Shown: positions 11,066 through 31,822 of the stretch, in pieces
Layout: every line of letters begins with the position of its first letter
How positions within the stretch are numbered: position 1 is the stretch's first letter
Assembly (NCBI GenBank): GCA_018304605.1
Contig: JAGVVU010000033.1
Location: forward strand, 1 to 44,033
Origin: Candidatus Aenigmatarchaeota archaeon
GTDB lineage: Archaea; Aenigmatarchaeota; Aenigmatarchaeia; GW2011-AR5
Direction: 5' to 3'
DNA length: 44,033 nt
Notes under the pieces: generated by a model
What the model saw: the letters and a program-made list of their open reading frames with translations, nothing else
Told to the model about the DNA's origin: nothing
The model's database searches: none
Made by a program: the position numbers and the translations under genes

Positions 11066-11809
11066 ATGATAATCAGGGAAGTGCAAGCCAAGTCAATACT
11101 CACGAAGAGCCAGCTTACTGATTATTGCATCAATTGCTATATGGGCTGTTCATTTGGTTGCGCTTATTGCTACGCACAGCTCATAATAAGGAAATTCCAC
11201 CCCGGGCAAGCCTGGGGAGACTATCTTGATGTAAAAATCAATGCGCCGCAGCTGCTCGAGAAGGAGATCGTCCGCGCGAAGCGCGGCACGGTCATGATGT
11301 CATCAGTAACAGACCCCTACCAGCCTCTTGAGGGCAAATACCAGCTGACAAGGCAGTGCCTGGAAATCCTGCTGCGGCATGACTTCCCTGTCACCATCCT
11401 CACGCGATCTCCTCTTGTGACGAGAGACATCACGCTGCTCAAGAAATTCAAGGAATGCACTGTTGGCGTCTCGGTCACGACAAACGACGACAAGGTCAAG
11501 AATTTATTCGAGCCGCTCACGCCCCCATTCAAGATTAGAATAGAAACGTTAAAAGAACTTCACGATTCTGACCTGAGAACATATGCTTTCATAGGTCCCA
11601 TGCTCCGAATGGATCCAAATGTAGTAGGCGAATCGGTCGGCCCAAATGTTGACTATGTTTTCATAGACAAGATTAACTATCCCCAGTTATGGAGACATAT
11701 TGCGGAAAAAAATGGCATATATTTTGACAAGGAATATTTTGAAAATACTCGAGACAGTCTTATCGATTCGTTTAGGGGACAGGGCGTCAAAATCAATGCC
11801 TTGTTCTGA
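11066..11809 (+). CDS. radical SAM protein, SplB/COG1533-like (DNA-repair photolyase family)
   Basis: CSFGCAYCYA (CX3CX2C) near the N-terminus, and the S..TDPYQP.E motif typical of this family. Confidence 0.7.
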   Translation: MIIREVQAKSILTKSQLTDYCINCYMGCSFGCAYCYAQLIIRKFHPGQAWGDYLDVKINAPQLLEKEIVRAKRGTVMMSSVTDPYQPLEGKYQLTRQCLEILLRHDFPVTILTRSPLVTRDITLLKKFKECTVGVSVTTNDDKVKNLFEPLTPPFKIRIETLKELHDSDLRTYAFIGPMLRMDPNVVGESVGPNVDYVFIDKINYPQLWRHIAEKNGIYFDKEYFENTRDSLIDSFRGQGVKINALF

Positions 11810-23151: not shown

Positions 23152-23640
23152 CTAATTCTCTTCCTGGGCTATCTTGAACTTGTTCAGAAGGAACTCCCTC
23201 ATGTCCATTATGTCATCCTTGCCGTTCTCCAGATAACCCCGGCGCTGCTTGTAGTAGAAGCTGTAATTGTAGAACCACCAGAAGCTCCGCTGGACGAAAT
23301 TGGAGAAGCTGTAGCTCGTGTCAAGGGTGCCCTTCATCTCAGCCGTGAACCACCCTGTCCCATCCTTGTTCTGGACGCCCTGGGCTATCACGCGAATATG
23401 AGTCCTTGACCACTGGTCCTCCGTCCGCTTGCCCATCCAAACCCCGTAGAAAGACCCGTCAGTGGCATCCCACCTTATATCCGTCTCGAGCAGGTCCTTG
23501 CCCGGGATCTTCATTATATTCTTTATCATGTCAGGGACTATTCCCATGATGGCGGCGGGATTCGAGCCTGTATACTTTATCTTTGCCCTGTCCGACGGCG
23601 CCATGAGGTCGTCGATAATCTTGAGCTTTATCTTGTCCAT
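23152..23640 (-). CDS. orphan protein, paralog of 25244-25762
   Basis: Colinear weak similarity: I.Y.G..P...P......W....F..W...D..S......G...; aromatic C-terminus RSFWWFYNYSFYYKQRRGYL versus RRFWHNMFYQHQRMEYL. Own TATA tttataaata about 30 nt upstream. Confidence 0.6.
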   Translation of the reverse strand: MDKIKLKIIDDLMAPSDRAKIKYTGSNPAAIMGIVPDMIKNIMKIPGKDLLETDIRWDATDGSFYGVWMGKRTEDQWSRTHIRVIAQGVQNKDGTGWFTAEMKGTLDTSYSFSNFVQRSFWWFYNYSFYYKQRRGYLENGKDDIMDMREFLLNKFKIAQEEN

Positions 23641-23748
23641 ATACCATTATTACTGCAGTATTGGTATTTATAAAAAATTGGTAAAGCGGCTGTGAAAGTC
23701 GGGCTATTTTTCTCTCAAAAGTTTTCCTGTTCTTATCGCAATTTTGTA

Positions 23749-24111
23749 CTACTTGGCTTTATCTGTGTGCGAATCTTTGTGAGGTGCTTCATCCTTATGG
23801 CCCTCATACCGGCCCGCGTAGCTGCCTCCCCATTCACTAACAGATTTGTCCGTATGCTTACCGACTTTGTCGGAATGATGATCTGTATGGTCGACATGAT
23901 CGGAATATGCGTCGTTATATTCTGAATGTTGCTCTGATTTTTTGTAGTCCGAATGGTCGTCATAGCCAAATAGAAATTTCTGACCATCATAGACGTGTTC
24001 TCGTATTACTCTCGCTAATACAGGATTTTCAATCCTATTGGGATCGAACACATTATCTTTATACCCCACTAGGCCCGAACCTACCTTTCTCAATGGACTT
24101 TCACACGACAT
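23749..24111 (-). CDS. His-x-Asp/Glu repeat protein (120 aa), candidate substrate/partner of the upstream radical-SAM enzyme
   Basis: ATG 24111 overlaps the radical-SAM stop by 11 nt. The C-terminal about 70 aa carry 9 H-x-[DE] triplets (HSD, HSE, HVD, HTD, HSD, HTD, HKD, HKD, HTD). Confidence 0.6.
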   Translation of the reverse strand: MSCESPLRKVGSGLVGYKDNVFDPNRIENPVLARVIREHVYDGQKFLFGYDDHSDYKKSEQHSEYNDAYSDHVDHTDHHSDKVGKHTDKSVSEWGGSYAGRYEGHKDEAPHKDSHTDKAK

Positions 24112-25207
24112 CTTGCCTAACCTCCGCTTTTGCCAATTCAGCTTCAACTCTTTTCTGGATATGAGAAAACAAAATTTTGTAGCTCGCACAATAATAATCC
24201 CTTGTGTCAATGTTTCCTGTCTGCATGTACGCATTGTGCATGCAGCCAGAATTGCATATTTGTCTGTATTCGCATGGCTGGCATTCCTCTACCCTCTCAA
24301 TCCTTCTTCTCAACCACTCTCTTCTCTCAGATGTCAACACTTCGGTCAAATCATCGGTGTTAATATTTCCTAGATAGAATTCTCCATTTCCATCAAATCT
24401 ACCACAGGGATATATGTCTCCCTGAGGTCCTATAGATATAAAACTGCTCTGACACGATTCCGAATAGTTACAACCAAATGCTTTGTTCGTTAGAAGGCTT
24501 GCAATCATATCATCAAAAGGATCTAATTTTATTGCAGGTTTGTCATAAAACCATACATCAAAAAGATCTATCATGGCACTTCCATATTCTTGAGGTCCAA
24601 GTCCTAAATCGCCATACATTGACAGAGTTCTGCCCGCTTTTATTAACGGGTTTAGTTTCAAGTTTATTCCTTCAGATTTCGCAAATTCATAAATCCCACC
24701 GAGTCCACTCTTGTTTAGTTTATTTACAACAACTATTGCGCCACCGCCTAGTTTCCTCTGTTTTGCCTTGTGAATTGCTCCTAATATGCGATCGAAAACA
24801 CTCTCCCCAGTTCTGGTGTGTCGCGTTCTGTCATTCATTTCTCTGGGACCATCAAGACTGAAACCAATGTCAAATCCATACCTTTCACAAAAATCCAATA
24901 CATCATCGGTTACTAGCGTGCCATTGGTTTGAAAACCGTTTTCAACCTGTCCATCATGATGTTTCTGCTGGAATTCAACGGCTCTTTCATAGAAGCTAAG
25001 AGGCATTAATAAGGGCTCGCCGCCATGCCAGATGAATCTTACACTGTCGTGAATTTCCAAAACTTTGGAAGTCATATTCCACAATGTCGGTTCGCTCATT
25101 CTGCCTATTTCTGCATTAGGGTCGACATAGCAATATGTACATGCCAGGTTACAGTCATGTGTAGGTTTTACAATGACAGAAATCCGTTTTTTGGGGTGCT
25201 GTGACAT
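24101..25207 (-). CDS. radical SAM enzyme with C-terminal SPASM domain (anSME/peptide-maturase-like)
   Basis: CNLACTYC (CX3CX2C) at the N-terminus. Cys-rich C-terminus GCNYSESC...YPCGRF...CQPCEYRQICNSGC...YYC. Confidence 0.85.
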   Translation of the reverse strand: MSQHPKKRISVIVKPTHDCNLACTYCYVDPNAEIGRMSEPTLWNMTSKVLEIHDSVRFIWHGGEPLLMPLSFYERAVEFQQKHHDGQVENGFQTNGTLVTDDVLDFCERYGFDIGFSLDGPREMNDRTRHTRTGESVFDRILGAIHKAKQRKLGGGAIVVVNKLNKSGLGGIYEFAKSEGINLKLNPLIKAGRTLSMYGDLGLGPQEYGSAMIDLFDVWFYDKPAIKLDPFDDMIASLLTNKAFGCNYSESCQSSFISIGPQGDIYPCGRFDGNGEFYLGNINTDDLTEVLTSERREWLRRRIERVEECQPCEYRQICNSGCMHNAYMQTGNIDTRDYYCASYKILFSHIQKRVEAELAKAEVRQDVV

Positions 25208-25243
25208 TAATACGGTATAATGAAAATATTTATAAAGTTGACT

Positions 25244-25762
25244 TTACGTTGGCGACCCTTCCCGCAGCGTCTCGCCGAAATGCTTCACGCTGGACTCCAT
25301 GGATGTCAGCAGCTCTTTCCCGAGGTTCAGGTATTCCATCCTCTGGTGCTGGTAGAACATGTTGTGCCAGAAGCGGCGGACCATCTCGTAGAGTATGTTC
25401 TGCTGCCAGATGGTGTCCTGCGGGTACTCGGTTATCAGGCGCGGCTTTAATCTTATCACTGCCTTCCCCTCGCCGCCCGCGCTGAAGCCTTTCAGCGATA
25501 TCTCGCAGACTATGTACGAATAAGTGTCAAGCACCTTGTTTACTTCCCAGTCGACCTCGAACTTGTCCCCGTCCTTGGTCTTCTCCCACGAGTAGTTCTT
25601 CTCCTGCACGTACGCGTCAGGGACATTGAATATGGTCCTCATAAGCTCGTTAAGCTTCTTGTAGAACTGCTCGGGCTTAGGCCCGACATACGAGATCCTC
25701 AGGTCCTTGATGGGCTCGAATATGTAATCCCATATCAGAAGTTTTGTCCTTCCCCATACCAT
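25244..25762 (-). CDS. orphan protein, paralog of 23152-23640
   Basis: Start set at ATG 25762 by alignment with the paralog's N-terminus. Ends 36 nt upstream of the radical-SAM gene. Confidence 0.6.
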   Translation of the reverse strand: MVWGRTKLLIWDYIFEPIKDLRISYVGPKPEQFYKKLNELMRTIFNVPDAYVQEKNYSWEKTKDGDKFEVDWEVNKVLDTYSYIVCEISLKGFSAGGEGKAVIRLKPRLITEYPQDTIWQQNILYEMVRRFWHNMFYQHQRMEYLNLGKELLTSMESSVKHFGETLREGSPT

Positions 25763-25844
25763 CTTTGTACACCTTATAAGAATATTCCTTAATTCACTAT
25801 ATATTGTTAACCAGGCGAATAATCTGGTCATATTATGCATTGGT

Positions 25845-25943
25845 TATAGTTCTCCAAGGAAACATTCTGGATATTATTTCCTTGGGAACTATATGTGAAC
25901 CCAGAATTCATGTCCGAAATCTTTTCTGGGTTCACTATAACAA
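25845..25943. repeat. two-hairpin repeat, copy G
   Basis: Hairpin 1 is 25845-25893 (17 bp, one bulge). Hairpin 2 is gtgaacccagaa/ttctgggttcac, 25895-25935. Confidence 0.65.
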
Positions 25944-25987
25944 TACGCAAACCAAGTTGTGCCGCATATTTTTAGCCTGGTTTACTA

Positions 25988-26117
25988 GCTCTGTAGAAAT
26001 GCTCAAGGAAAATCAGCAGGAACCCTATTGTGGACACACAATAGGGTTAGTAACTAGAGGGTGTTGTGCTTTCACAACACCCTCCCTGCTGATTTTCTCA
26101 TAGGTTTTCTACAGAGC
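25988..26117. mobile_element. nested-palindrome element B
   Basis: Outer 12 bp, inner 13 bp and two 12-bp hairpins (loops gaca, cttt), all perfect. Same module order as A and D. Confidence 0.55.
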
Positions 26118-26723: not shown

Positions 26724-28400
26724 ATGGCAGCAAAAAAAGAGGAAAAGGGTGAATGGATACTTGGCGACCTCTCCAGGCATCCTCTCAAGGGAGACATTCT
26801 CAACAAGTCGCTGGGCAAGATGTGCGGGCCCAAGGGACTGTGGCTCGGCCATGTCCTGGCTGCCGGGCCGTTCGAGGCTCATGTCAAGCTTGATTTCACG
26901 GGGCCGCCCGGCTCCGTTTCCGGGATCTATTACAGCCTCACTTTCCAGCTTGGGAAGTGGGAATATCAGGTGCAGAAGCGTGACGAATGGATAGAAGTCT
27001 CTCCGGTCCACGCGCAATACTATCAGCTGACGCAGAAGCAAAAAGAGGATTTGGAAGGGAAGATAAAACAGGGGCTCGTCTCGGTCTCCCAGTCGGTTGC
27101 GGACATGGAGCTGCTCATGCATGACAGGCGCAGGTATCATGAATTCCTGCATTATCTCGGCTACAGGACTCCAAACGAGTTGAAAAAAGACAAGAAGCTA
27201 GAGAAGCAGGAAAAGGAGCACCAGCACATAGACGAGGAAATGGATGAGATATGCCTGAAAGAGGACGAAGATGAAAAACAGCGAAAGGAGAGGGAGAAGC
27301 GGACGGACAATCATTCTCTCAAGGCGGTGTTCATAGACCAGGTTGACATGCACACCGGCGAAGGGATCTCAATGCGCAGCATAGTAAGTCGCTGGCCCAC
27401 GCTCATCACGGACTTCATGAGGATGGACGACGGCGACATGGATCCCGGCAAGGTGAGGGACAAACTGGACATCTCACGGGCAGAGGCAGTAGTACTCATA
27501 ACCAAGAACAAGCTCTTCCAGGAATGGAAAAACATCTTTGGACCGGAAATAAAGAACAGGTACATCACAATAAACGACCTGACCAGAGCCAGAAAGGAGT
27601 CTGTGAAACAGTACAAGGAGTGGCTCAAGCCGTTCATAGCGAGGCACAAGCTCATCAAGGAAGGGTTGGCGACCGCGGGCGGCCGGGGCGGGGCGCTGAC
27701 GTCATTTGTCACTTCCGGCGGGGTCGCCACTTCCTCGTCGAAGATAGTGCTGTATGTCTGGAAGGATTTTCTCGTCCCGGAGCTGTACAAGGGCGGGTCG
27801 GAGGAAACTGCGAAGATGCGCGAGTTCAAAAAACTCAGGCCCGACGACGACTGGACGATGAAAAACCTTATATTCAGCAGGAAATTCGGGCTCATAAACA
27901 AATATCCATGGATTACGGAGAAATGGGTGAAGGACAAGCTGGAAGAAATGGGGGCTTCCAGATGGTTCACTTACCAGAAGCCTTACTATTCGTTTTTTGA
28001 GATAACACTCGAGAAGACCAACATCAGGATGCCAACTGGCGACGAGATGGAGGACGGGGTATTCGACATCAACATGTTCTGCATGAGCGAAAATGCTTTG
28101 TTCTGCAAGCTGCTCGAACTGAAGGCGGAGCAGGAGCTCATGGAGCAGCACGTGAACAGGCTGCTCGGCATACATGAGCCTGTGCGCGGCACAGTGCCGA
28201 AATATGCGCAAAAAGAGGAGAGCCCGGTAACAAAATTCCTTGACAAATTCCCGATGCCGTTCCAGTTCGCCAAGAATCACGGGCCCTACGAGCGCGACTT
28301 CGCAGACAGGCTGACGAAGATATATTTCGCGCGCATAGCGGGCGAGAGGTACGCGCCGATAGTCAACTTCATAAAAATGAAGATGGGAATGAAAGCTTGA
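26724..28400 (+). CDS. large orphan protein (558 aa) with a central acidic/basic coiled-coil insert
   Basis: AAGGAG lies upstream of the ATG. Long uninterrupted ORF with protein-like composition. No motif recognised. Confidence 0.7.
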   Translation: MAAKKEEKGEWILGDLSRHPLKGDILNKSLGKMCGPKGLWLGHVLAAGPFEAHVKLDFTGPPGSVSGIYYSLTFQLGKWEYQVQKRDEWIEVSPVHAQYYQLTQKQKEDLEGKIKQGLVSVSQSVADMELLMHDRRRYHEFLHYLGYRTPNELKKDKKLEKQEKEHQHIDEEMDEICLKEDEDEKQRKEREKRTDNHSLKAVFIDQVDMHTGEGISMRSIVSRWPTLITDFMRMDDGDMDPGKVRDKLDISRAEAVVLITKNKLFQEWKNIFGPEIKNRYITINDLTRARKESVKQYKEWLKPFIARHKLIKEGLATAGGRGGALTSFVTSGGVATSSSKIVLYVWKDFLVPELYKGGSEETAKMREFKKLRPDDDWTMKNLIFSRKFGLINKYPWITEKWVKDKLEEMGASRWFTYQKPYYSFFEITLEKTNIRMPTGDEMEDGVFDINMFCMSENALFCKLLELKAEQELMEQHVNRLLGIHEPVRGTVPKYAQKEESPVTKFLDKFPMPFQFAKNHGPYERDFADRLTKIYFARIAGERYAPIVNFIKMKMGMKA

Positions 28401-28570
28401 GCTTTTTCATCATCGAGCGAAGCTCGATGTGTGTCGCAAAGCAGAGCTTTGCAACATCTTCAAAAGAAAAAATCTCAATCAACTTGAGGAAAGCATAGCT
28501 TTCCTAAGTCCCCGAAAGATTGAATCTTTCGGGGAAAAAGAATCATTTATAAGGGGTGGCTCGCTGCCAC
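28392..28570. repeat. intergenic run of six or seven short perfect hairpins
   Basis: aaagc/gcttt (stop codon in the loop), catcgagc/gctcgatg, gcaaagc/gctttgc, ctcaa/ttgag, ggaaagc/gctttcc, ccccgaaaga/tctttcgggg, gtggc/gccac. Confidence 0.5.
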
Positions 28571-28587
28571 TCGCAGAATAATAAAGG

Positions 28588-30303
28588 GTGAATAATATCG
28601 CTGAAGAACCAAAGAAACCGTTGTACACCGTCGGCATATCGACAGGATTCTGGAGGATCGGAAAGGACCCGGCGCTGCTCGGGCTGGCGCAGAAGATCGG
28701 CGGGCTCGGCGCAACGGGCGGGATACGCTTCGTGCAGATAGACCTCGAAACGGTCGCAGAATTCTCAGAGCCGGACGTCAGGGCGCAGATAAGACGCATC
28801 CAGAGCAAGCTCGGAATGGACGAAGTCGGGCTCCACGGAGAGATTGGCGAGCTCATGGCGCTAGACTCGGCGGAAAAGCGCATCTGGGACCAGACACACC
28901 GGAGGCTCTGCCAGACGGTCAAGTTCGCCGCAGAAGTCGGCTTTCTTTACGTCAACGTTCATCTGTCAAACAAGCAGGTTATTTCTTTCACAGAGGCGCA
29001 GCACAGGACGCAGGGTTATTTCTATCCTGTCGTCGGGCCTGACGGAAAGGGTCTGCAGAATATCGTAAAGGACAACCCCAAAGTTTGGGACGAGGTCAAG
29101 AAACGAATGCCGCGTACTTTGGGGCAGAGCGTAACATTCAGGGAGGCGTACAGAAAACTACAGGAGGATAAACTTAGGGAATTACCAGTTCTTATTGAGC
29201 AGGAGGTAAGGAGACATCTTGAAACACTTCCAGAGCATCAGCGGACAGAAGCTACCAGAAGAGAATTGACGGAACAGTACAGGCGAAAAATAAGTCAGGA
29301 ACTCCTTCAGGAAGCAAGGGACGAGGCAGGTTCGCCCAAATTTGAATTCGACCAATGGCTGAAATTAAGGGATGACGAGTCTGAAAGGTACCAGCTGGAC
29401 GACGGCGAATGGGGAGCTTATCACGTGGTTGCGCACTGCATGAAGGAAAGCGGGGACACTTTCTGGAGCAGCATAGCGAAAGGCAAGGACCCTGAAACCC
29501 TTTACTTCGACGAGGAAACGGCTTTCTGCGCCGCTGTAGCTTCCAAGTACATAGAGGGGCATCTTACACTGAAGAATAGCAAGGCAAACCGCGATTTCCT
29601 CAATGGAATGAGCGTCAAGGAATGGTGCGAGAAGCACAAGCTCTACCTGCTGCTTGAGAACCCGGAATCCGGCGAAGGAGCTGAAGGGCTGTACAGGTTG
29701 TTCGACCCGGAACACTTCTATTACACAATAAAGAAAATAGGCTCGCCTTTTGTAATGGTTACCATTGACTTCGAGCACATGGTCTCACAGGGCATCGATC
29801 CAGACAAGGCATTGCCAGTCCTTCCCGATGACTTTGGCAAGATGATTTTACTGTTTCATCTGGGGCAGGCAGTGCCCTACGGCGGCACGGCGCACATCCC
29901 GATAGCCCGCGGCTCCATTGCGCAGGAGCAGATATACAAGTGGCTGTACATACTCAAGAAAAAAGGCTGGAAAACCGGATATATTATGTTCGAACGGGGC
30001 GGGGGCAGAACGGGACAGGGCAGGCTGCCCAATGAGGTATTCGAGGACAGCGTTCAGGCACTCCGCCAGATATCGCTGTACCTTGAAAAGGATGTCAAGC
30101 CGGAAATCCTTCCTCCCGAATTCTACGGCATATCGCTGCAAAACGAGGCTGTATGGTCGAGGCAGCTCGTGGCAATGAGAGAACATGCGTGGGACCCAAT
30201 AGAAGGACTTCTGAGCGTGCCAGAGGAGAAGCACACGTTCCTGAGCAAGGCAGCTCTGGACAAGGGCAAGGCACAGGAATGGGAGAAGCGGAAGTTCCGA
30301 TAG
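28588..30303 (+). CDS. xylose-isomerase-like / AP-endonuclease-2 family TIM-barrel protein with an about 200-aa helical insertion
   Basis: Motif series HGEIGE, VNVHL, LLLENPESGEG, IDFEHM, FHLGQ...HIPIARG, MFERGG follows the Endo IV/sugar-isomerase barrel order. GTG start. Confidence 0.6.
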   Translation: MNNIAEEPKKPLYTVGISTGFWRIGKDPALLGLAQKIGGLGATGGIRFVQIDLETVAEFSEPDVRAQIRRIQSKLGMDEVGLHGEIGELMALDSAEKRIWDQTHRRLCQTVKFAAEVGFLYVNVHLSNKQVISFTEAQHRTQGYFYPVVGPDGKGLQNIVKDNPKVWDEVKKRMPRTLGQSVTFREAYRKLQEDKLRELPVLIEQEVRRHLETLPEHQRTEATRRELTEQYRRKISQELLQEARDEAGSPKFEFDQWLKLRDDESERYQLDDGEWGAYHVVAHCMKESGDTFWSSIAKGKDPETLYFDEETAFCAAVASKYIEGHLTLKNSKANRDFLNGMSVKEWCEKHKLYLLLENPESGEGAEGLYRLFDPEHFYYTIKKIGSPFVMVTIDFEHMVSQGIDPDKALPVLPDDFGKMILLFHLGQAVPYGGTAHIPIARGSIAQEQIYKWLYILKKKGWKTGYIMFERGGGRTGQGRLPNEVFEDSVQALRQISLYLEKDVKPEILPPEFYGISLQNEAVWSRQLVAMREHAWDPIEGLLSVPEEKHTFLSKAALDKGKAQEWEKRKFR

Positions 30304-30342
30304 GCTCCTTCCCGCTCAAATACAAAAGCAAATCAACCAAGA

Positions 30343-30441
30343 GGCTTTGTTGCAAAAGTGATGGACATCTGTCGATGTCCATCGATGCATTAGGCTATCG
30401 ATGCTAAACGCATATCGATAGCCGACTTTTGCAACAAAGCC
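30343..30441. mobile_element. nested-palindrome element C
   Basis: 17-bp outer stem ggctttgttgcaaaagt/acttttgcaacaaagcc encloses two 10-bp hairpins. ccaaga/caaga direct repeat at both junctions. Same termini as element A. Confidence 0.5.
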
Positions 30442-30544
30442 CAAGAAAAGCTTTAATACATGGCATACTACAAACGTAGTATGCTGTACATGAGAAGCTT
30501 TTTTCGCTTCTCATCATGACATATGTATTGAATACGGCAAAACA

Positions 30545-31822
30545 GTGATTATAGTGGCAAGGCAAAAGAAGACAAATCCGAAAACAGCCAAGTCTGTTGC
30601 TCCTGGCGCGCCGGACGGAAAGACGCAAAGCGGCCAGACGCATGCGCATCAGCCTGATTCGCATCATGCGCCCGCAGACGCAAAGCTGAAGGCAAAGCAG
30701 GAGGCGTTCCGCAAGAGGCAGCTGGCTCTCGCCAATAAATTCAAGGAAGAAGTTCTCAAACGCTATAAGGACATCGTCAAGGCCATAGTCATATTCGGCT
30801 CATTCACGCGGCAGGACTTCCATGAGAAATCCGACATAGACATGCTTGTGGTCATAGACGACGTCACTGCAAGGTTCACGCCGGAGATGAAGGACGAGTT
30901 CGACGACAGGCTCTATGATATTGCCAAGCGAATTTCCGAGAACATGACCGTGCAGCCTGCCTGGATGCTGTCCGAATTCTGGGACATGGCGCGCATCGGC
31001 CATCCGCTGCTCTTCACTATCGTGCGCGACGGCTGGGCATTGTACGACACAGGTTTCTTCATTCCGGTGCGAAAACTGCTTGAGCTCGGCAAGATACCGA
31101 CCACTCTCGAAGCTGTCGAGAAATTCATGGAGACGGCGCCGCAGAAGATAAACAGGGTGGAGACAGCCAAGCTCTACATGGTCGCGGAGGACTTGTATTA
31201 TTCCATGCTCAACAGCTCGCAGGCGGTGCTCATGTACATGGGCCTGAACCCGCCCTCGCCGAAGCACACGCCGCTCGACGTGAAAGAGCACCTTGTCGAC
31301 GCAAGCCTTCTCGAGGAGAATTATCTGACCGACCTCCAGAACGTGATAGAATTCAGGAAGAATGTGGAGCACAAGGAAACCAAGGACATCTCCGGCCAGC
31401 AACTGGACGAGTTCATACAAAAAGCGAAGCAATACGTCTCAAGGATGGAGCAGCTTCTCCTGCAGCTCCAGAAGAAGAAAAAAGAGACGATTGTCCACAA
31501 GAACTATGAAGTTATGATCAAAGCGGCTGTCGCGGCGCTAAAAAAGATAGACAAGCTGCCGCCGGACCCGAAAGATTTGCCGGGGGCGATAAAAGAGCAG
31601 CTGATCGACACGAAAAGGGTCGACTCTTATTTCTCGGACGTCTTCAAGCGGGTCATCACTATGAGAAAGATGCTTGACGAGGACAAGATAAACGAGATAC
31701 CCCAGAGGGACATAGAGATGACGCGCGAGTACGTAAGGCGCTTCGTCCAGGATTTGCGCCCGATGATAGAGGCTACCCAAAAGAAGCCCGCCCCAAAGAA
31801 GAAAAAGGGCGGCAAGAAATGA
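30545..31822 (+). CDS. fused nucleotidyltransferase (MNT-type) and HEPN-like protein with Lys-rich tail
   Basis: GSFTRQDFHEKSDIDMLVV (GSX10DXD). Downstream helical domain with an RKNVEH (RX4H) motif. GTG start is uncertain. Confidence 0.6.
   Translation: MIIVARQKKTNPKTAKSVAPGAPDGKTQSGQTHAHQPDSHHAPADAKLKAKQEAFRKRQLALANKFKEEVLKRYKDIVKAIVIFGSFTRQDFHEKSDIDMLVVIDDVTARFTPEMKDEFDDRLYDIAKRISENMTVQPAWMLSEFWDMARIGHPLLFTIVRDGWALYDTGFFIPVRKLLELGKIPTTLEAVEKFMETAPQKINRVETAKLYMVAEDLYYSMLNSSQAVLMYMGLNPPSPKHTPLDVKEHLVDASLLEENYLTDLQNVIEFRKNVEHKETKDISGQQLDEFIQKAKQYVSRMEQLLLQLQKKKKETIVHKNYEVMIKAAVAALKKIDKLPPDPKDLPGAIKEQLIDTKRVDSYFSDVFKRVITMRKMLDEDKINEIPQRDIEMTREYVRRFVQDLRPMIEATQKKPAPKKKKGGKK

Follow-up and report, generated by a model that had tools for sequence, protein, structure and literature searches.

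The 44,033-nt contig JAGVVU010000033.1 of a Candidatus Aenigmatarchaeota archaeon (assembly GCA_018304605.1), which we analysed over its whole length and refer to as the window, carries on its minus strand a gene for a radical S-adenosylmethionine (SAM) enzyme with a SPASM domain and, overlapping its 3' end, a gene for a 120-residue protein rich in His-x-Asp/Glu triplets. We find that the two genes are translationally coupled and conserved together in other genomes, that the small protein consists of a leader and a core, and that the enzyme is placed beside a family of maturases that cross-link peptides. Our preferred reading is that the pair is probably a maturase-substrate operon of the kind that makes peptides synthesised on the ribosome and modified after translation (RiPPs), namely an uncharacterised triceptide-like system in which the third residue of each triplet is acidic. 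We consider it very likely that the small protein is the substrate of the enzyme. That the bond formed is of the carbon-carbon cyclophane type, as the analogy with other maturases suggests, is in our judgement about as probable as all other outcomes taken together.

A translationally coupled gene pair

The small open reading frame (ORF) starts at an ATG inside the final codons of the enzyme gene ('caagATGtcgtgTGA'), giving an overlap of 11 nt, and a Shine-Dalgarno-like GGAGGT precedes this ATG by 8 nt, which confirms the coordinates of the overlap and the coupling described in the initial annotation. Upstream, an archaeal TATA-box-like decamer, TTTATAAATA, stands 29 nt 5' of the enzyme ATG, and we infer that it is the promoter of the enzyme gene. 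The same decamer recurs at 23665-23674, ahead of the next gene (162 aa), and a run of six T residues 3' of the small ORF is a possible archaeal terminator that would mark the likely end of a bicistronic operon. The TATA-like box so close to the enzyme ATG, together with the T6 run and the second decamer, makes the pair look like one leaderless bicistronic operon, with an enzyme transcript that is probably leaderless. A sigma-70 promoter scan carries no information for an archaeon, and the surroundings of the pair are those of an archaeal chromosome, encoding ribosomal proteins, TFB, deoxyhypusine synthase and a YchF-like GTPase.

The small ORF can mechanically be read as 161 aa from an ATG at 24234, a reading unsupported by homologues and gene callers; public gene calls use the 120-aa product (P0001). 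The identical 120-aa product is annotated on metagenome contigs from the Rifle aquifer, and groundwater from Hainich yielded a 117-aa homologue with 73% identity (L001); the overlapping enzyme gene is directly upstream in each. Over the first 49 codons, the window gene and this homologue differ by eight synonymous and three non-synonymous changes, which indicates that the small ORF is a real gene under purifying selection. Their cores diverge faster and contain insertions and deletions, with the triplets retained.

A conserved leader and a core of aromatic-x-Asp/Glu triplets

Residues 49-120 of the small protein contain exactly nine H-x-[D/E] triplets (H53SD, H62SE, H72VD, H75TD, H79SD, H86TD, H105KD, H111KD and H115TD), in agreement with the count first made for the roughly 70 C-terminal residues. 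Composition-preserving shuffles of this core contain 2.3 such triplets on average and never reached nine in 20,000 trials (P<5e-5). Asp or Glu occupies the +2 position of 9/10 core His residues, and Ser occupies that of the other one. Three Y-x-D triplets (Y50DD, Y65ND and Y69SD) lie in the same stretch, whose composition is largely His, Asp, Ser and Lys.

The preceding 48 residues are conserved. An alignment of 20 precursor homologues gives the leader consensus G-x-x-I-D-x-x-x-I-x-N-P-x-L-x-R...F-L-F, in which I27 and N29 are invariant. From a 14-sequence alignment, AlphaFold2 (AF2) places three short strands and a helix within residues 7-41 (helix 30-41), with a block-mean predicted local distance difference test score (pLDDT) of 70-88 over residues 1-40, and it assigns residues 49-120 no secondary structure (pLDDT 44-51). 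As modelled, a folded leader followed by a disordered core is the anatomy of a RiPP precursor. The initial annotation had paired a single SPASM maturase with a co-encoded His-x-Asp repeat protein as its possible target, and this anatomy, which is that of a radical-SAM substrate, suggests that the relation was correctly proposed. No NCBIfam or Pfam model matches any of the precursors.

Across homologues the cores vary in length and sequence and keep the triplets, with His, Tyr, Trp or Phe at position 1 and Asp, less often Glu, at position 3. The interchange occurs even within one core, as in that of L009 (WGDNRWADRHID), which includes WGD...WAD...HID; further examples are the cores of L011 (HWGHTDHSNYSDHKD) and of a member of the Bacteroidales branch (NWSEYNESYDDYNDCHGDYYDAE). 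The description of the repeat as His-x-Asp thus stands for the window protein but not for the family, where the unit is aromatic-x-Asp/Glu and any of H, Y, W and F can take the aromatic place. In 29 archaeal precursors, 55% of aromatic residues have Asp or Glu at +2 compared to 19% in shuffles, and the +1, +3 and +4 positions are depleted; because these precursors were picked partly by motif count, the enrichment carries an ascertainment bias, and the unbiased test is the co-occurrence count over 81 loci given below.

Exchange of the aromatic residue with a fixed acidic partner fits a substrate for aromatic cross-linking, not a metal site. This bears on the suggestion, also made at the outset, that the small protein is simply a metal-binding partner, that is, an unmodified binding or storage protein (for example, a Ni, Zn or Fe chaperone) that is merely co-transcribed with the enzyme. 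The His/Asp/Ser/Lys core does resemble histidine-rich metal-binding proteins, and no protease or exporter is conserved beside the pair, as might be expected of such a partner. However, the free replacement of His by Tyr, Trp or Phe, with Asp or Glu kept at +2, would damage metal sites, and the phase of the acidic residues relative to His is far stricter than composition gives. The conserved leader, the hypervariable core and the tandem multi-copy genes at some loci are, in addition, traits of a precursor. We give an unmodified metal-binding partner little credence and favour a modified substrate.

The tandem genes number two or three per locus and are found in L011 (7098-8145; the same locus as L013), L017, L019, L020 and L031. 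Their leaders are near-identical and their cores different, and the longest product has 147 aa with 19 aromatic-x-D/E triplets. A '...HTDK(A/T)K' tail is common to the ends of several long precursors, that of the window included.

The pair is conserved across DPANN archaea and in some bacteria

Searching with the enzyme returned 473 relatives at E<=1e-20 in the database; the named top matches are Aenigm-, Woese- and Pacearchaeota, and the closest named homologue is from the Aenigmarchaeota. For the co-occurrence count we used 80 loci from GTDB species genomes and two metagenome loci (L009 and L011), of which 81 were counted, and scored any small ORF of 40-200 aa on the same strand, no more than 1 kb from the enzyme gene, with at least four [HWYF]-x-[DE] triplets at a density of at least 0.05. 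Such a triplet-rich ORF lies beside the enzyme gene in 46/81 loci, and in 18/26 of the loci whose enzyme is at least 40% identical to that of the window, compared to a background of 11/2928 small ORFs elsewhere in the same loci (0.4%). Several loci counted as misses (L009, L023, L024 and L036) still hold a leader-bearing ORF with two to five triplets. The precursor start overlaps or nearly abuts the enzyme stop in L009, L013, L015, L017, L019-L022, L028, L032, L033 and L043.

The reciprocal look-up gave the same result: a Radical_SAM/SPASM gene is immediately upstream of all four precursor homologues looked up (P0127, P0130, P0125 and P0131). The gene pair is thus conserved together elsewhere, as would be expected if the initial proposal of a co-encoded substrate is right. 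When 1.84 billion representatives were searched exhaustively with the precursor by phmmer, 27 clusters were found, all but one of 58-126 aa, and those retrieved and inspected share the leader/core architecture. We rejected P0145 (576 aa, repetitive) as a spurious match. Profile and exhaustive searches were needed for this family; a word-indexed search with the small protein alone found one relative.

Members of the family are hosted by DPANN archaea and also by Kiritimatiellae, Verrucomicrobia, Syntrophaceae and a large Bacteroidales branch, with the caution that taxonomic labels of metagenome-assembled genomes (for example, 'Methanosarcinales' for some bins) need care. The system was initially taken to be archaeal, which is borne out in that most hosts are DPANN archaea but too narrow in that bacteria have it as well. 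The radical-SAM operon has a lower G+C content (0.43 at 24001-26000) than the rest of the window (0.45-0.52), and this, together with the bacterial members scattered in the enzyme tree described below, hints at lateral transfer.

The gut and rumen Bacteroidales enzymes (L046, L051, L054-L057, L060, L063-L070, L072, L077, L079-L081 and L087) have an identity of 31-36%. Most of their peptide genes, which encode 50-75 aa, are found 250-870 nt upstream of that for the enzyme; in L051, L060 and L077 the two are directly adjacent, and in L056 and L067 a gene of about 237 aa separates peptide and enzyme genes. Most of these peptides end in a conserved '...(W/Y)xEYxESY(D/G)DYNDCHGDYYDAE' and fall in no curated family, and we found no canonical RiPP protease or exporter beside the genes of the Bacteroidales relatives. 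In three further bacterial loci (L045, L058 and L061), the radical-SAM domain is inside fused proteins of 748-783 aa, adjacent to Tyr-rich repeat peptides ('YSDYSDYSNYS').

The enzyme as a probable nearest outgroup to DynA and HtkB

The radical-SAM core of the enzyme starts at about residue 12, with no N-terminal RiPP recognition element (RRE) domain before it. All eight SPASM Cys residues fall opposite Cys residues of anSMEcpe in a phmmer alignment, and two auxiliary [4Fe-4S] clusters could be bound by this number of Cys. Among the NCBIfam models, DynA (NF041298) scores highest, at 311.8 bits against a cut-off of 450, and the second-best is the anaerobic sulfatase-maturating enzyme (anSME) model TIGR03942, at 243.9 bits against 349.45. 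Relatives from L013, L021, L028, L032 and L046 likewise remain below the DynA cut-off (247-321 bits), which is passed by a true DynA from Photorhabdus australis (L062, 608.9 bits) and an HtkB-like enzyme from Pandoraea (L071, 587.7 bits); the window enzyme is 35-36% identical to these two. A neighbor-joining tree, which has no bootstrap support values, separates three clades, one of DynA/HtkB, one of Bacteroidales and one dominated by DPANN archaea with a few bacteria interspersed, and places the window enzyme in the last. On these scores and this tree, the window enzyme appears to be the nearest outgroup of the DynA/HtkB family, failing every curated membership threshold.

The AF2 model of the enzyme (pLDDT 90.3) matches anSMEcpe with Foldseek TM-scores of 0.84-0.85 and the leader-bound triceptide synthase ChlB with 0.82-0.84, followed by CteB and SuiB; by sequence, too, no solved structure is closer than anSMEcpe (PDB 4K36-4K39; E 5e-42). 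Along with the TIGR03942 score and the eight shared auxiliary-cluster Cys residues, these matches would suit an anSME, that is, a formylglycine synthase acting on a distant sulfatase, for which the adjacent ORF would be irrelevant. Against this, the score is below both the anSME cut-off and the DynA score, and because the true DynA also reaches 256.7 bits on TIGR03942, a score of this size is generic to the clade. Asp277 of anSMEcpe, which we take to be its proposed catalytic base, is replaced by Gly269 in the window enzyme and its family. Moreover, the neighbouring precursor-like ORF is kept across phyla, and no sulfatase-like ORF was noticed among the ORFs of the 44-kb window. The grouping with sulfatase maturases that the initial annotation had envisaged as the other outcome is thus not how the enzyme behaves, and we hold an anSME to be very unlikely.

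The replacement is part of a short signature after the third SPASM Cys, where C268-G269-R270 of the window enzyme lies opposite C276-D277 of anSMEcpe. G269 is conserved in at least 90% of the family, and 58/77 members have C-G-R or C-G-K. In the DynA/HtkB clade the signature reads C-A-S for DynA and two HtkB-like Pandoraea enzymes, C-A-T for L075 and C-S-T for L059; the known substrates of that clade are non-acidic at the third triplet position (X3). We also tried to map the HtkB residue D214 and the HaaB residue H204 (PMC11499958) onto the window enzyme; they were unassignable, and the P. capi homologue has Ser at position 214.

The initial annotation had likened the pair to an archaeal version of the bacterial His-Xaa-Ser (Hxs) system. 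The resemblance, a His-x-residue repeat protein beside a radical-SAM/SPASM enzyme, is superficial. The HxsB model (TIGR03978) reaches 82 of the 370 bits that its cut-off requires and matches over the N-terminal radical-SAM core only, the pair has neither HxsC (the second maturase) nor HxsD near it, and the repeat is aromatic-x-Asp/Glu, not His-x-Ser. The model scores and gene content refute membership of the Hxs system, to which we assign next to no probability; the nearest characterised relatives are instead DynA/HtkB and ChlB.

Proposed mechanism

HtkB, HaaB and YhhB join His C2 to the C-beta of the third residue in H-x-X triplets, and related enzymes use Trp, Phe or Tyr (PMC11499958, PMC12912966); HtkB, for example, cross-links His C2 to Lys C-beta in a His-Thr-Lys triplet (PMC11499958). 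By analogy with these enzymes, we propose that the folded leader of about 48 residues (I-x-N-P-x-L-x-R...F-L-F) of the 120-aa precursor would dock on the window enzyme, so presenting the disordered 72-residue core with up to twelve aromatic-x-Asp/Glu triplets. SAM would be cleaved reductively at the CX3CX2C cluster, and the 5'-deoxyadenosyl radical would strip a side-chain hydrogen from the third residue, most probably the one on C-beta of Asp/Glu. The carbon radical could then attack the ring of the aromatic first residue (at C2 of His or at a ring carbon of Tyr, Trp or Phe), with the electron passing to the two auxiliary clusters. Each triplet would thereby become a strained three-residue cyclophane, at a cost of 2 Da per site, as in bacterial triceptides. 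The reaction would be iterative and leader-guided, forming up to about 12 cyclophanes per window protein. The conserved Arg or Lys two residues past the third SPASM Cys (R270), near auxiliary cluster I, is a candidate for binding the substrate carboxylate.

The product of such a reaction would be a rigid, multiply cross-linked protein or peptide rich in His and Asp. As the His ring nitrogens and the carboxylates would be left free, metal binding is a plausible role for it. No protease, exporter or transporter family recurs beside the pair at the family loci or the four reciprocal loci, so the product may stay a full-length protein. One could go further and imagine an intracellular or surface protein whose tail is stapled by a dozen His/Tyr-to-Asp/Glu cyclophanes, a form of protein-scale cross-linking widespread in genome-reduced DPANN archaea that the adjacent operon might tailor or use, for instance in metal capture or host interaction; we regard this extension as speculative and improbable.

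Several points weigh against our reading of the pair as a triceptide-like operon. The chemistry is inferred entirely by analogy with other maturases. The models of known cyclophane-forming enzymes all remain below their cut-offs on the window enzyme (bits/cut-off: YhhB 158.7/445, XyeB 82.4/450, GrrM/OscB 131.8/310, FxsB 104.6/370 and AmcB 135.7/425). The searched literature (PMC11499958, PMC12912966) contains no characterised triceptide with Asp or Glu at the third position. All characterised triceptides mature by proteolysis (PMC12912966), to which the missing protease and exporter genes stand in contrast, and a 120-aa substrate with up to 12 sites far exceeds typical precursors in size. The correlation of C-G-R with acidic substrates is a clade trait and phylogenetically non-independent, and the ascertainment of the 29 precursors and the unsupported branches of the tree, given above with those results, belong here too.

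The same enzyme and substrate could also be joined by other chemistry: a bond from a His nitrogen to C-beta, as in the second ring of dynobactin; an ether, as in darobactin; or beta-oxidation, decarboxylation or epimerisation of Asp/Glu. DynA, the closest model, forms both a C-C and a His N-C cross-link in dynobactin. The enzyme's place outside all curated cyclophane families and the lack of an acidic-X3 precedent in the searched literature fit such an outcome, as does the finding that daropeptide and triceptide maturases have a common origin and differ in bond type (PMC12912966). On the other side, the interchange of H, Y, W and F suits bonds to ring carbons, whereas an N-linked bond is possible for His or Trp only, and the triplet spacing is strictly +2, like that of three-residue cyclophanes. 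We therefore see other chemistry on the same substrate as unlikely, though deserving real weight, and retain the triceptide-like operon as the working model.

Neighbouring genes

The features of the pair and its surroundings are collected in Table 1. Upstream of the pair, and divergent from it, is a triad of genes (26724-31822) for a 558-aa protein, a TIM-barrel protein and a nucleotidyltransferase. Using local hidden Markov models (HMMs), we found the 558-aa family adjoining the enzyme gene in 11 distinct DPANN loci (about half of those with enough flank), joined by the TIM-barrel family in ten of them and by the nucleotidyltransferase family in seven. In the DPANN relatives of the triad, the first product has about 520 aa, the second, a xylose-isomerase-like TIM-barrel protein, about 580 aa, and the third is an MNT-like nucleotidyltransferase; among 80 DPANN metagenome loci, most of the longer contigs keep the genes in this order. 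In the reciprocal scan, however, the enzyme pair is beside the triad in only 1/80 of these loci, and we rejected the triad as a component of the system: it is a widespread DPANN operon and a notable neighbour. The TIM-barrel family of the relatives matches MJ1311 (3WQO, E 2e-16), and the window protein is too diverged for the HMM of that family. Searches of the triad with Pfam, NCBIfam, PADLOC and PDB profiles found nothing beyond AP_endonuc_2, MJ1311-like and MNT-like matches.

The 162-aa and 198-aa genes that flank the pair are paralogues (25% identity, E 7e-11). Neither has a Pfam, NCBIfam or PADLOC match, and since their homologues are confined to contigs of the same organism, we rejected them as conserved partners. 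The neighbours in L023 are 53-76% identical to the window genes. Together with the Aenigmarchaeota affiliation of the closest named enzyme homologue, this points to an Aenigmarchaeota-like DPANN archaeon of groundwater as the probable source of the window. A second radical-SAM gene, at 11066-11809 on the plus strand (247 aa), lies 12 kb away; it is PA0069/Rv2578c-like (131 bits, below the cut-off) and not of the SPASM type.

Table 1. Positions of the gene pair, its signals and its neighbours in the window
Feature	Position	Strand	Basis or remark
Radical-SAM/SPASM enzyme ORF, 368 aa	24101..25207	-	Pfam Radical_SAM E 1.5e-16, SPASM E 2.1e-09
CX3CX2C motif (C19, C23, C26), radical-SAM [4Fe-4S] cluster	25130..25153	-	Invariant in 30-sequence alignment; aligns to anSMEcpe motif
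SPASM region, eight Cys (C246, C252, C268, C309, C312, C318, C322, C340)	24188..24472	-	Invariant in 30-sequence alignment
Small precursor-like ORF, 120 aa	23749-24111	-	ATG at 24111-24109
Leader, residues 1-48, conserved I27-x-N29-P...R...F-L-F	23968..24111	-	Alignment, AF2, codon changes
Core, residues 49-120 and stop codon, proposed modification sites	23749..23967	-	Motif count, shuffle test, AF2
Shine-Dalgarno-like GGAGGT	24120..24125	-	8 nt 5' of small-ORF ATG, within enzyme coding region; sequence read
Archaeal TATA-box-like TTTATAAATA	25227..25236	-	29 nt 5' of enzyme ATG; sequence read
T6 run 3' of small ORF	23672..23677	-	Sequence read
162-aa gene with its own TTTATAAATA box	23152-23640	-	Paralogue flanking the pair
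198-aa gene	25244-25840	-	Paralogue flanking the pair
558-aa protein, no detectable family or PDB match	26724-28400	+	Pfam, NCBIfam, PADLOC and PDB profile searches
571-aa AP_endonuc_2/xylose-isomerase-like TIM-barrel protein	28588-30303	+	Profile searches
425-aa MNT-like nucleotidyltransferase	30545-31822	+	Profile searches

Significance and comparison with known systems

DPANN archaea have genomes of about 1 Mb and little biosynthetic capacity. That a maturase and a multi-site substrate are kept across Woese-, Pace-, Nano- and Aenigmarchaeota-like lineages despite such small genomes suggests that their function matters to these symbionts. If our reading is true, cross-linking of the daropeptide/triceptide type would extend to archaea, acidic residues would join the allowed third positions of the triplet, substrates would carry 9-19 sites, many more than known precursors, and the stapling of His, Tyr or Trp to Asp or Glu would gain new biocatalysts. 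In gut Bacteroidales, this enzyme clade also comprises a large, unstudied branch, the peptides of which are conserved ('...YNDCHGDYYDAE'). Our literature search found neither archaeal or DPANN triceptides nor acidic-X3 cyclophanes reported in any paper, so that a co-encoded His-x-Asp repeat substrate of a single SPASM maturase is, on this search, not yet described; the landscape dataset of Sugiyama 2022 may list it.

Among known systems, anSMEcpe shares with the window enzyme its length, a three-cluster architecture and all eight auxiliary Cys residues, but differs in family score, in having Asp277 where the window enzyme has Gly, and in acting on a distant sulfatase instead of a dedicated peptide-like substrate encoded next to it. 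The Hxs system (HxsA-D) likewise sets beside a radical-SAM/SPASM enzyme a protein in whose repeats every third residue is His; it differs in using two maturases instead of one, in the HxsB score (82 vs 370 bits) and in its repeat, in which Ser takes the place of Asp/Glu, whereas in the present family Tyr, Trp or Phe can replace His.

Of the curated families, the DynA/HtkB clade (NF041298) scores best, and in the tree it is next to the clade of the window enzyme. Its enzymes share with the window enzyme a length of about 360-400 aa, the absence of an RRE, the CX3CX2C motif, eight SPASM Cys residues and an adjacent precursor gene. Unlike in that clade, the third triplet residue is acidic here and not Lys, Asn or Tyr, each precursor has 9-19 sites and not 1-3, the enzyme has C-G-R where DynA and the two HtkB-like enzymes of Pandoraea have C-A-S, and the hosts are mostly DPANN archaea. 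The dynobactin precursor has a short core with Trp...His-x-Tyr; no precursor of this type is present, the window core being 72 residues of H/Y-x-D/E repeats.

From the triceptide systems (XyeB, GrrM/OscB, FxsB, YhhB, HaaB and ChlB) the pair differs in that the curated models of enzymes that form three-residue cyclophanes (3-CyFE) all score far below their cut-offs (82-159 bits), in having Asp/Glu at X3, unlike the characterised members, and in having no protease or exporter conserved nearby; no archaeal triceptide was found in the searched literature. Like them, however, it combines a leader with repeated aromatic-X-X triplets (PMC11499958, PMC12912966), sometimes with many triplets per precursor and several precursor genes per cluster, and draws on all four aromatic residues. 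The predicted fold of the enzyme is close to that of the triceptide synthase ChlB (TM 0.82-0.84). Two features of a triceptide locus are present in the window: a SPASM maturase with the CX3CX2C motif and Cys residues for two auxiliary clusters and, next to it, a leader-bearing precursor with 12 triplets in its core.

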